From the UHGV virus genome UHGV-0168748: a stretch of 44,209 nt of DNA. One strand, given 5' to 3'. Under the pieces are notes generated by a model. The model ran no database searches and was not told where the DNA came from. It saw only the letters and a list, made by a program, of their open reading frames with translations. Positions 1-5,478 of the stretch are shown here, in pieces (position 1 is the first letter of the stretch; every line of letters begins with the position of its first letter). A program made the translations under genes and the position numbers. The DNA is from a virus.

Positions 1-51
1 AGATCTACACTTAAGGAGTCGTCGGCAGCGTCAGATGTGTATAAGATACAG
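1..51. other. Illumina Nextera i5 adapter (flow-cell stub, 8-nt index, Tn5 mosaic end); library artefact
   Basis: Reads AGATCTACAC-TTAAGGAG-TCGTCGGCAGCGTC-AGATGTGTATAAGATACAG; inverted copy at 44161-44209 with two mismatches. Confidence 0.9.
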
Positions 52-128
52 ATATAGCTAAGATACAAGAATGGGCAGATGCGGGCTCTAAAGAAAACGT
101 AGGAACTTTCTTTAAAGATTTCGTCGAG

Positions 129-2941: not shown

Positions 2942-3090
2942 CAGACATCCCCAAAAGCCAGAAAGCGTTTACGACCCTTGTGTGGTCCTTTACGCCAGCG
3001 ACTAGCGATAGTTTTACGATTTACTTTGCAACGGATTCTCTTATTCAGATTGATATACTTTATAGTAACTTTAATGACATCATTCGTCAT
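2941..3090 (-). CDS. small basic protein (49 aa), not in ORF track
   Basis: Hand-translated MTNDVIKVTIKYINLNKRIRCKVNRKTIASRWRKGPHKGRKRFLAFGDV; GAGGG RBS; shares RKGPxK motif with the next ORF. Confidence 0.4.
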   Translation of the reverse strand: MTNDVIKVTIKYINLNKRIRCKVNRKTIASRWRKGPHKGRKRFLAFGDV

Positions 3091-3111
3091 AAAGAATTCC
3101 CTCATCATTAA

Positions 3112-3558
3112 TTAACCCATTAAATGGATTACGACGTCTTTAGTTACTGAGTTTGCCAGTAAGCGAAAGAACTTCATGTAACGGAACATGCTAAAGAAAA
3201 CCCCAGCGTTGTCTACAATAACAAGGCTGTATTTTTCTTTTTCTGTACCCATTTGATAACCAATGATTTGCGTGATATTCTCTGGTAAGTCTTCGAGACC
3301 CAAACGGAATAGCACATCGTCCTCTAAGAACCCTTTTGGGTTAACGAATAATACTTTCCCTTTGTGGTTCTTAGCTAACTTGACACCGAAGTCCGTAAGC
3401 CCCGTCTGTCTACCCGTACCGTAGCGGATAGTACGAAATTCAGATAAAGCTTTAGGTCCATAACGATCGGTAAATGGATTATCTTTAGAATCCAGATCGG
3501 TTAAACCTTTTAATAATTCTTCTACTACGATGTTATAGTTAACATGAGTTTTAGACAT
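3112..3558 (-). CDS. hypothetical protein adjacent to thymidylate synthase
   Basis: 148-aa ORF immediately downstream of thyA; no motif recognised, not DHFR-like. Confidence 0.55.
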   Translation of the reverse strand: MSKTHVNYNIVVEELLKGLTDLDSKDNPFTDRYGPKALSEFRTIRYGTGRQTGLTDFGVKLAKNHKGKVLFVNPKGFLEDDVLFRLGLEDLPENITQIIGYQMGTEKEKYSLVIVDNAGVFFSMFRYMKFFRLLANSVTKDVVIHLMG

Positions 3559-3588
3559 TTTATCGTACCTTTTTAATTAGGTGGTAAT

Positions 3589-4623
3589 TTATACTGCGAC
3601 GGGGGCCGCAATATGTGGATGAGCTTGATAATCGACTAATTCGAAGTCTTCGTATTTGTATTCGAAGATAGAATCAGGTTTACGTTTGATAACCAGTTTA
3701 GGTAGCGGGTAGGGTTCGCGTGTAAGTTGAAGTTTTGCCTGCTCCAGATGGTTAGAATACAGATGAACGTCTACACCACTATAAACCAACTCGTCCGGAA
3801 CCATGTTCAGTTGTTGAGCAACGATGTGTGTTAACAACGCGTACGAAGCGACGTTAAATGGCGCGCCGAGTAGGTAATCGTTGCTCCGCATCATGTAAAA
3901 ACATGAAAGCTTACGGCGTGGAATGCCCTCACGATCTAAAGTTTCATGAAGCCGCTCTTCATCATCAATATCTTCGTGATTAATAAGCGGTGCGCTCGCA
4001 AATTTTTCCGGCTCGTTTACTTCGTACCAATCCAGTCGTTCAAGCAGTGTCATTTCTGTAGTGTAGAATTGGAAATAGTTGTGGCACGGGTTAAGTGCCA
4101 TATCGTCCAGGTCGGCTACGTTCCAGGCACTAACGATAATGCGTCGGGAGTCAGGGTCTTCACGAAGCTGTTGGATAACTTTACTGATCTGGTCATGTGC
4201 TTTTTCATAAACCAAATACGTCGTACCATCTTCCTTCATATTCCCGATATACTTGTAACCACGTTGTATTAGTTGTTGTGTACGCCCTACGTCATGGCAT
4301 TCCACAACCTTACAATCGCGCCATTCACGCCACTGTTTACCATAAACAGGTCCTAATTCCCCTTCCGCATTCGCCCACTCGTTCCAGATTCTTACTCCGT
4401 TCTCTTGCAGGTACTTCACGTTAGTGTCGCCGTTCAAGAACCACAGCAGTTCGTGGATAATACTTTTCAGGTGAACTTTTTTCGTAGTGACTAATGGGAA
4501 GCCTTCTCTCAGGTCAAAACGTAACTGACGACCAAAGACAGAAAGAGTTCCTACGCCTGTGCGGTCTTCCTTAACAACACCGTTATCCAGAATGTCTTGC
4601 ATTAACGCTAAATACTGTTTCAT
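3589..4623 (-). CDS. thyA: thymidylate synthase (ThyA family) with two insertions
   Basis: [36 protein letters not shown], catalytic [17 protein letters not shown]; C-terminal 50 aa near-identical in pattern to E. coli ThyA. Confidence 0.9.
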
Positions 4624-4931
4624 TAAATTTTGTCCTTTTCGAGTTCAATTAAAATTTCAAATAAGTCTGCGTTGGATTGCAGTACAATTTCACTGCCTTC
4701 TGCTACAACAGTAATTGACGGTTTCTTACCACGTAGCAAGAACTCCCAACGCATTGTTCTTACGTGGTTGTCAAGTAACTGTTTTAATTTGTGGTTAACT
4801 TCGACTTCCAGTTTGCCCAGTAATTGCGGTGTAATCGCTTCGCCTGAGTTTTTGTTATAAAGTGTACGCACTAAAGAACGCAAAGAATAACCAATGCACT
4901 GCGATATTGCCCAACCCGAATAGTTTTCCAT
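4623..4931 (-). CDS. hypothetical protein
   Basis: 102-aa track ORF, stop/start abutting neighbours. Confidence 0.5.
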
Positions 4932-4932
4932 G

Positions 4933-5478
4933 TTAATCCTTCAAAATGTCTTTAAGTTTTAGTTTTGTATAGAACGGAGAACTGCTGAGTTCTTCTGTCC
5001 AGCTTATACGTCCGTTCTGTAGAACCCGGTCGAAGATTAGACCATTCATCTTTACAATTCTGGCCAATTGATAAAAGAGTGTCGTGAGATGTAGTCGTCG
5101 CTCCATTTGTGCGCGAGCGGTACAACTACGTACCGCTTTGATAGCTAGTACCGCTTCTGGCATTAGCGTCACCGCGATTGTTTCAGGATGTTCGTTTTTC
5201 CATTTCTTAATGGCTAGTAGTCGATGTAATGATTTTTCAAGGGGACGTAAATCCCCGTTGTTCATCACGTAGACTAAAGCACCAATATCCCACAAGGCAA
5301 TACCTACTGCTTTAGCGACAAACAACCCGTCGTGGGTTGTTGTGGCTTCACAGACCTTACCAATACTTCCGTATACACGTGCAGTCCATGCATCTGTCTG
5401 CTCGCCAGGTTTTATATTCACGTCATCCAGAAAATGTTTAAACGCATTAACATGATCAGTTAACTGTATTTGTTTCAT
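4933..5478 (-). CDS. hypothetical protein
   Basis: 181-aa track ORF. Confidence 0.55.
   Translation of the reverse strand: MKQIQLTDHVNAFKHFLDDVNIKPGEQTDAWTARVYGSIGKVCEATTTHDGLFVAKAVGIALWDIGALVYVMNNGDLRPLEKSLHRLLAIKKWKNEHPETIAVTLMPEAVLAIKAVRSCTARAQMERRLHLTTLFYQLARIVKMNGLIFDRVLQNGRISWTEELSSSPFYTKLKLKDILKD

Follow-up and report, generated by a model that had tools for sequence, protein, structure and literature searches.

The gene at positions 3,589 to 4,623 of the window (the whole stretch of 44,209 nucleotides that was analyzed) almost certainly encodes, as judged from its sequence, an active ThyA-type thymidylate synthase with a conventional catalytic core. The reading that we favor, at slightly better than even confidence, is that the product is the conventional ThyA of a jumbo phage of about 222 kb related to Seoul, Goslar, and Erskine, that its two inserts are lineage-typical surface modules on an unchanged core, and that the second of them, insert B, serves as a protein contact. 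Few enzymes are as conserved or as well studied as thymidylate synthase, a classic drug target, and the β-hairpin at its dimer interface is regarded as belonging to the immutable core of the enzyme. It is the turn of this hairpin that insert B interrupts, between the strand of Cys180 and the strand of Arg246 (C146 and R166 in E. coli ThyA).

The gene lies on the minus strand and is a complete open reading frame (ORF) that runs uninterrupted from ATG to TAA, with 344 codons before the stop in the ORF list. Its ATG overlaps the stop codon of the upstream ORF at 4,623 to 4,931 (TAATG), and other ORFs of the window encode phage structural proteins and proteins of DNA metabolism. The first-pass annotation had reported a thymidylate synthase with two large insertions at this location. 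The ORF and the inserts were confirmed, but on the minus strand; the plus-strand translation of positions 3,589 to 4,623 contains many stops.

Group I introns classically reside in phage thymidylate synthase genes, and a wrongly called frame, an intron left unspliced, or an intein could in principle account for the extra length. In addition, some metagenomic relatives carry inserts of 180 to 280 amino acids at the first insertion site, with weak homing-endonuclease (NUMOD-like) signals. However, the gene is a single unbroken ORF, and the same architecture is found in many phage genera and in 120 natural variants of 94 to 100% identity, all of which have exactly 344 columns and no indels. An Rfam scan of positions 3,000 to 5,200 at an E value of ≤0.1 returned no family, the sole match being a chance snoRNA outside the gene. 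Both inserts were modeled by AlphaFold2 at high confidence, and at 40 and 47 amino acids they are far smaller than inteins and have no Cys/Ser...His-Asn junctions. The single ORF, the Rfam result, the 120 identical architectures, and the confident fold ruled out mistranslation, an intron, and an intein for practical purposes, in line with the initial view that the inserts are in frame and are not introns, and we regard an artifact of any such kind as extremely improbable.

The assignment as ThyA draws on family models, alignments, and structure. Pfam PF00303 spans residues 2 to 344 (E value, 1.1e-109; 366 bits against a threshold of 24.3). The NCBIfam equivalog NF002499, which has a cutoff of 405 bits, was passed at 407.8 bits despite the inserts, and the scores for NF002497 (397.6 against 327) and TIGR03284 (341.5 against 108) were both above the curated cutoffs. 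The core is about 64% identical to E. coli ThyA over 257 aligned residues, and Foldseek gave a TM score of 0.97 over the E. coli chain for the AlphaFold2 model. Compared with E. coli ThyA (PDB 2TSC and 1TYS; NF002499/NF002497), the phage protein has the same catalytic and substrate-binding residues and the same C-terminal lid. The catalytic N-P-C180-H181 is aligned to A-P-C146-H147 of E. coli and is invariant in alignment A1, which sets this protein beside nine phage enzymes and E. coli ThyA. Alignments with E. coli ThyA place the codon of the catalytic Cys180 in the PCH motif at 4,084 to 4,086 on the minus strand. The dUMP-phosphate arginines R21, R160, R161, and R246 (R21, R126, R127, and R166 in E. 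coli) are all kept; none of them varies in A1, and they are fully or almost fully conserved in alignment A2, which comprises the query and the 149 best-scoring 50%-identity cluster representatives (150 sequences). E58, W80, W83, Y94, S247, D249, N257, H287, and Y289 are also kept. In thymidylate synthases, the C-terminal segment with its free carboxylate closes the folate site, and the phage protein ends in ...AAPVAV directly before the stop codon (...APVAI in E. coli). Such an enzyme would convert dUMP and methylene-tetrahydrofolate to dTMP and, as is the rule for ThyA, would act as an obligate homodimer.

Phage hydroxymethylases share the thymidylate synthase fold, which houses them in several phages, and cellular thymidylate synthases bind their own mRNA. 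A hydroxymethylase acting on dUMP or dCMP, or inserts that bind nucleic acid for translational autoregulation, could thus be envisaged, although we consider either very improbable. The dCMP hydroxymethylases, such as T4 gp42, have Asp at the position of E. coli N177 and have lost the C-terminal lid of thymidylate synthase. In the phage protein, the corresponding residue N257 is Asn, which at this position sets specificity for dUMP rather than dCMP, and the PVAV lid, W80, Y94, H287, and Y289 are all kept. The ThyA equivalog cutoff was exceeded, and a gp42-type dCMP hydroxymethylase model appeared far down among the structural matches (TMq, 0.53). As for autoregulation, the charge of the two inserts ranges from neutral to strongly acidic, which speaks against binding to RNA or DNA.

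To place the inserts, the protein was aligned by phmmer with E. coli ThyA structures, giving three blocks in which residues 1 to 102 match E. coli residues 1 to 102, residues 143 to 189 match 109 to 155, and residues 237 to 344 match 157 to 264. Because these blocks leave two segments unaligned, insert A is defined as residues 103 to 142 and insert B as residues 190 to 236. Insert A (positions 4,198 to 4,317, minus strand) puts 40 amino acids in place of the 6 residues 103 to 108 of E. coli ThyA, a net gain of 34, and insert B (positions 3,916 to 4,056, minus strand) puts 47 amino acids at the hairpin turn in place of the single D156, a net gain of 46. E. coli ThyA is without both. The first-pass annotation had set 344 residues against about 264 for E. 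coli ThyA, with about 35 extra residues at the first site and about 50 at the second; these figures held well, since 264 plus 34 plus 46 is 344. It had also described the flanking motifs accurately and had called the catalytic motifs beside the inserts intact, and indeed every checked residue was kept relative to E. coli ThyA. The GC3 of both inserts was 0.35 to 0.36, lower than the 0.49 found for comparison.

An AlphaFold2 monomer model was built from the 150-sequence alignment. The model had a mean pLDDT of 96.9 and a pTM of 0.94, with a lowest 10-residue block of 76, and both inserts were folded with high confidence. Insert A was modeled as a strand, a helix, and a β-hairpin (strand 101 to 108, helix 112 to 120, and strands 124 to 131 and 134 to 143) with a pLDDT of about 98. 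Insert B was modeled as a helical hairpin of four short helices (193 to 203, 205 to 210, 216 to 220, and 222 to 231). Its pLDDT was 95 to 98 in context, the sole dip (76) falling in its variable middle, and 87.7 when it was folded alone; in the models, insert B folds autonomously. The first strand of the interrupted hairpin starts at the catalytic Cys and the second ends at Arg246, which puts the open end of the hairpin at the active site and insert B at the distal end. It is acidic, with a net charge of -10 here and of -7.8 per 100 amino acids in the family, compared with -1.6 for the core.

Insert A has a clear precedent. The region of residues 89 to 168, which includes insert A, aligns without gaps to residues 105 to 184 of chain A of 3V8H, the ThyA of Burkholderia thailandensis (NF010393/PRK13821), with an E value of 2e-12, and insert A has the same length in both proteins. 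NCBIfam NF010393 likewise aligns continuously through insert A (stretch 1 to 189). Among solved thymidylate synthases, 3V8H gave the best coverage of the model, with a TMq of 0.79 compared with 0.74 for E. coli. In 44 relatives, insert A has the consensus QWRxWeDTRIV..GY..G..v.R.IDQI. Taken together, the alignments identify insert A as a known α/β extension of about 40 amino acids, on the side of the small domain, homologous to that of the Burkholderia-type ThyA, so that it is already represented by a crystal structure. Site A is the position of the second insert of eukaryotic thymidylate synthases, which is consistent with the E. coli and 3V8H alignments. It varies from 5 to 282 residues in length across the 150 aligned sequences, and in A1 the enzymes with an enlarged site A are those of this phage, SPN3US, Goslar, Asesino, Phobos, a phiKZ-like phage, and the Rak2-like phage G17.

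The phage enzyme nevertheless differs from the Burkholderia enzyme. 3V8H is without insert B, and the core identity is lower (31% by Foldseek). The phage protein scores 230.4 bits against the NF010393 cutoff of 576, and its core is E. coli-like; it therefore shares insert A without being a member of that family. The Burkholderia enzyme has another residue in place of the active-site Trp83 (PMC3561365), whereas the phage protein has kept this Trp. The paper on 3V8H refers to "large subdomain differences" and gives no detail (Baugh et al. 2013, PMC3561365).

Within its lineage, the gene is nothing unusual. When deposited phages were searched by tblastn, full-length matches of the same length with 58 to 64% identity were found in the SPN3US-like Salmonella phages, in Goslar, and in Erwinia phages such as Asesino, phiEaH2, and Phobos. 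In the protein alignment, the two-insert architecture is shared by SPN3US, Goslar, Asesino, and Phobos, which are 59 to 63% identical, and the BFVD model of the 201phi2-1 thymidylate synthase matched with a TMq of 0.92 that includes both inserts. Nucleotide similarity to the SPN3US, Goslar, and Erwinia phages was confined to a UvsX-like region. Isolate assemblies of Salmonella, E. coli, and Shigella contain contigs of about 222 kb that encode more than 120 protein variants with 94 to 100% identity, and two finished 222-kb "plasmids" (of Enterobacter ludwigii and of E. coli 98232) had 83 to 89% DNA identity. These isolate-assembly variants and 222-kb "plasmids" fit the "persistent" Seoul-like jumbo phages that have been described in bacterial isolate assemblies (bioRxiv 10.1101/2024.12.31.630880). 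Because both inserts are common to its relatives, the gene is no oddity but a normal representative of what Seoul-, Goslar-, and phiKZ-type jumbo phages carry. The first-pass annotation had named insertions common to a known ThyA subfamily as evidence against its reading, and this is largely what was found, with insert A in 3V8H and NF010393 and insert B in 241 phage records and 110 of the 150 sequences of A2.

The 241 records were those deposited phage records in which tblastn with the B region and short flanks gave a coverage of at least 80%. They include phiKZ, 201phi2-1, SPN3US, Goslar, OBP, Psa21, and Xanthomonas phage Xoo-sp14; jumbo phages of Aeromonas, Klebsiella, and Edwardsiella; the Prevotella Lak megaphages and an uncultured phage of 735 kb; and Flavobacterium, Chryseobacterium, and Pseudomonas phages of 100 to 160 kb. 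Insert B is thus retained in phages of Proteobacteria and of Bacteroidota. In the same type of search, T4-like and Bacillus phages matched the flanks of insert B only. When 1.84 billion cluster representatives were searched exhaustively with HMMER, 15,695 thymidylate synthases were recovered, and in A2 the 110 sequences counted above have at least 30 residues at site B. On two metagenomic contigs, each about 80 kb long, B-bearing enzymes were encoded in an unmistakably phage gene context, and insert B was seen here in phage contexts only. When the B region was used as the query, all PDB thymidylate synthases aligned to the two flanks only, with insert B absent, and none of the NCBIfam ThyA models aligned across site B. 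The hairpin insert B was not described in the literature searched, and it seems to be undescribed there. We refer informally to enzymes with a helical module of 38 to 95 amino acids between FQFY and LSC as "hairpin-insert" thymidylate synthases.

Jumbo-phage thymidylate synthases have three insertion sites in A1, namely, a small-domain site, site A, and site B. The small-domain site, which ranges from 4 to 210 residues in A2, is expanded in A1 in ChrisDB, MadMel, and a phiKZ-like phage, and site B is expanded in all of the A1 phages with an expanded site A or small-domain site except G17. In the phiKZ-like, ChrisDB, and MadMel enzymes, which are 372 to 488 amino acids long, the small-domain site holds a third insert that the phage protein studied here does not have. 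Lactobacillus casei ThyA has a 50-residue insert in the small domain and human thymidylate synthase has two eukaryotic inserts, which are precedents for lineage-specific surface insertion into an enzyme that is invariant elsewhere; however, these inserts belong to the small domain, close to the folate site, and none of them breaks the dimer-interface β-hairpin as insert B does.

Since insert B was present in all nucleus-forming phages that were sampled, the inserts might serve as a localization device of chimalliviruses, for example, by excluding thymidylate synthase from the phage nucleus or tethering it there. In PhiPA3, thymidylate synthase fused to GFP is excluded from the phage nucleus; however, GFP alone is excluded too. 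Insert B is also found beyond the phiKZ/Seoul/Goslar-type jumbo phages, namely, in Prevotella Lak megaphages, in Flavobacterium and Chryseobacterium phages of 100 to 160 kb, and on contigs of about 80 kb, where the lack of a nucleus is deduced from taxonomy and genome size, and Burkholderia chromosomes encode insert A, as does the Rak2-like phage G17. A nucleus-specific role was rejected on the distribution of insert B, and localization by the inserts in general seems to us highly doubtful. By analogy with PhiPA3, we infer that the thymidylate synthase would act in the cytoplasm, outside the phage nucleus, so that dTMP would be made in the cytoplasm of the infected cell.

To further examine insert B, we counted its conserved columns. 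Among the 110 B-bearing sequences, the residue corresponding to R196 was conserved in 100 and that corresponding to P235 in 107, followed by E195 (81), D230 (75), and R237 (67). The codon of Arg196 lies at 4,036 to 4,038 and that of Pro235 at 3,919 to 3,921, both on the minus strand; the two residues are near-invariant in the A2 column counts and invariant in alignments A4 and A5, and Pro235 marks the re-entry of insert B to the interface strand (G-[VI]-P-x-R-x-LSC). The phage protein scored 37.4 bits with an HMM of the B module and carries E195, R196, L229, D230, G233, P235, and R237, thus matching the module motif E-R ... L-D-x-x-G-[VI]-P-x-R as well as the longer form found in the SPN3US, Goslar, and phiKZ group, T-R-E-L-[ST]-x-x-E-R ... 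L-D-x-x-G-[VI]-P-x-R. The middle of insert B, 25 to 35 residues between the two main helices, is free to vary.

This mixture of fixed and variable positions bears on whether insert B has a function at all. The inserts could be near-neutral loop expansions that were fixed by drift in large-genome phages, with only a few anchors under constraint to keep the fold undisturbed. Insert A and the central part of insert B differ widely in length and sequence. Among the 120 close variants, 45 to 50% of the columns were variable in the inserts compared with 26% in the core, about a twofold difference, and GC3 is lower in the inserts, as given above. The conserved Arg and Pro of insert B are compatible with purely structural anchors, and the knock-down of the phiKZ thymidylate synthase has weak effects (PMC12571901). 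On the other hand, insert B is kept across phages of two bacterial phyla, its Arg and Pro are about as conserved as the catalytic residues, it folds alone in AlphaFold2, some lineages have a duplicate of it in a second loop, and the 120 close variants are without indels. We therefore view near-neutral expansion as a possibility to be taken seriously, yet an unlikely one. The favored reading, a function for insert B, draws on its retention across very different phages, its near-invariant anchor residues, and its re-use at a second loop, and the autonomous folding, the conservation, and the duplication of the module all argue for a real role. The first-pass annotation had proposed that the inserts could be regulatory or interaction modules, and its interpretation as a whole is partly supported.

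The re-use at a second loop was seen with an HMM built from insert B only. At the small-domain site of ChrisDB and MadMel, the third insert proved to be another B module (16.5 bits in ChrisDB and 17.5 bits in MadMel), whereas the maximum score among 1,000 shuffled proteins was 6.7 bits. In addition, 8 of 51 other small-domain (site 0) inserts and one site-A insert scored above every shuffle. Insert B may thus be a portable, acidic, self-folding helical-hairpin module that large phages have grafted onto thymidylate synthase, sometimes twice, as a dedicated docking element. We hold this stronger version to be rather unlikely. If it is correct, the candidate roles would include recruitment to a dNTP-synthesis assembly, shielding from a host factor, and clamping of the dimer together with modulation of the partner site. 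When the HMMs of insert A and insert B were run against the 456 stop-to-stop pieces of the window, each matched in the thymidylate synthase only; since no other ORF of the window carries either module, there was no sign of a docking motif shared with neighboring enzymes.

The position of insert B also raises the question of the partner subunit. As in other thymidylate synthases of known architecture, the strand beside the interrupted hairpin would donate Arg160 and Arg161 (R126 and R127 in E. coli) to the active site of the partner. Insert B could then aid catalysis in, or regulation of, that site, with R196 acting as an extra ligand or lid that reaches the dUMP phosphate or the folate-polyglutamate entrance. 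R196 is near-invariant, and the strand after insert B, KLSCFYMMR, is equivalent to LSCQLYQR of the human and E. coli enzymes, which has the same sequence as a peptide designed against the monomer-monomer interface of human thymidylate synthase (PMC8041318). However, the module is acidic, which would be unfavorable beside a phosphate or polyglutamate; enzymes without insert B are fully active; and the B module is also found at a quite different loop. Covariation, too, favors docking within the monomer. Core residues 270 to 275, equivalent to Q190 to E195 of E. coli at the C-terminal end of helix J and in the next loop, co-vary most strongly with the presence of insert B, which suggests that insert B probably docks at the C-terminal end of this long central helix. 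A direct part in the partner's active site therefore appears distinctly unlikely.

Our preferred reading of insert B as a protein-protein contact element could take two forms. Insert B may buttress or extend the homodimer, near the strand that lends Arg160 and Arg161 to the partner. Alternatively, another phage protein of nucleotide metabolism may dock on its acidic surface, as was proposed for the inserts of T4. Finer-Moore and colleagues reportedly suggested in 1994 that the surface inserts of T4 thymidylate synthase mediate contacts within a complex that synthesizes dNTPs. The T4 td enzyme is a phage enzyme about 36% identical to the one studied here, and it matches only the flanks of insert B; T4-like td genes often carry a group I intron instead.

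In the literature searched, there was no biochemical or structural characterization of the thymidylate synthases of the SPN3US, Goslar, and phiKZ type. The enzyme studied here thus belongs to a thymidylate synthase lineage of phages that is widespread and annotated but uncharacterized. Within the structural picture of the thymidylate synthase family, the B module marks a small but real gap. If it does prove to be a dedicated docking element, the portable B module would be a previously unrecognized accessory domain of a highly conserved enzyme, and insert B may hint at protein contacts that are peculiar to the nucleotide metabolism of phages.

The helical module that forms insert B of the window's thymidylate synthase (aa 190-236; window 3916-4056, minus strand) occurs twice in the thymidylate synthases of Erwinia phages ChrisDB and MadMel. 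In these proteins, one copy lies at the hairpin site, in the turn of the dimer-interface beta-hairpin, and the other at the classical small-domain site of jumbo-phage thymidylate synthases (aa 95-145 in ChrisDB; aa 89-134 in MadMel). The second copies scored 16.5 to 17.5 bits, versus no more than 6.7 bits in 1000 shuffles. The presence of two modules in a single protein implies that a coding module was duplicated or transposed within the gene.

The third-position GC content of the window's two insert segments, insert B and insert A (aa 103-142; window 4198-4317, minus strand), was 0.35 to 0.36, versus 0.49 elsewhere in the gene. The lower value might stem from relaxed codon constraint or a separate ancestry, but both segments are too short to make this firm.

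Other thymidylate synthases were also enlarged. Very large in-frame inserts of 180 to 282 aa were found at the insert A position in some related metagenomic proteins, including P0130, P0149, P0153-P0155, P0157, P0173, and P0233. Two proteins with large inserts at this site, P0154 and P0132, gave weak matches to I-HmuI NUMOD-like sequences, and the large inserts could represent homing endonucleases inserted in frame, or else open reading frames of introns which gene callers read through. The metagenomic proteins P0125, P0156, P0165, P0204, and P0235 each carry about 140 additional residues at the N-terminus. A Pfam scan of this extension in P0125 and P0156 returned no matches; the extension could represent a fused domain not yet characterised. 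The phiKZ-type thymidylate synthase of Pseudomonas phage LC (488 aa; 1001-2467 of its locus) is enlarged at all three insertion sites and is annotated in its record only as "hypothetical protein."

About 1 kb downstream of the window's thymidylate synthase gene (3589-4623), and likewise on the minus strand, lies a 316-aa open reading frame (1679-2629). Its match to MazG nucleotide pyrophosphohydrolase (19.9 bits) was below the cutoff of 22, and the sequence suggests that it may encode a further nucleotide-pool enzyme within the gene cluster.

At the window end, nucleotides 1-57 matched unrelated phage and plasmid records at 88 to 96%. These matches are spurious because positions 1-52 (approximately; AGATCTACAC-TTAAGGAG-TCGTCGGCAGCGTCAGATGTGTATAAGATACAG) resemble, with one mismatch, an Illumina Nextera P5/i5 adapter with the transposase read-1 sequence. 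Window 1-52 looks like adapter contamination at a contig end without biological meaning.

The window is part of a jumbo phage of about 222 kb related to Seoul, Goslar, and Erskine. No close genome was found among deposited phages, the top thymidylate synthase identity being 64%. Many isolate assemblies of Salmonella, E. coli, Shigella, and Enterobacter contain the phage as contigs or circular "plasmids" of about 222 kb (related records include NZ_CP173450.1 and NZ_CP134650.1). The phage fits the "persistent virulent jumbo phages" described previously (bioRxiv 10.1101/2024.12.31.630880; PMC12768965).
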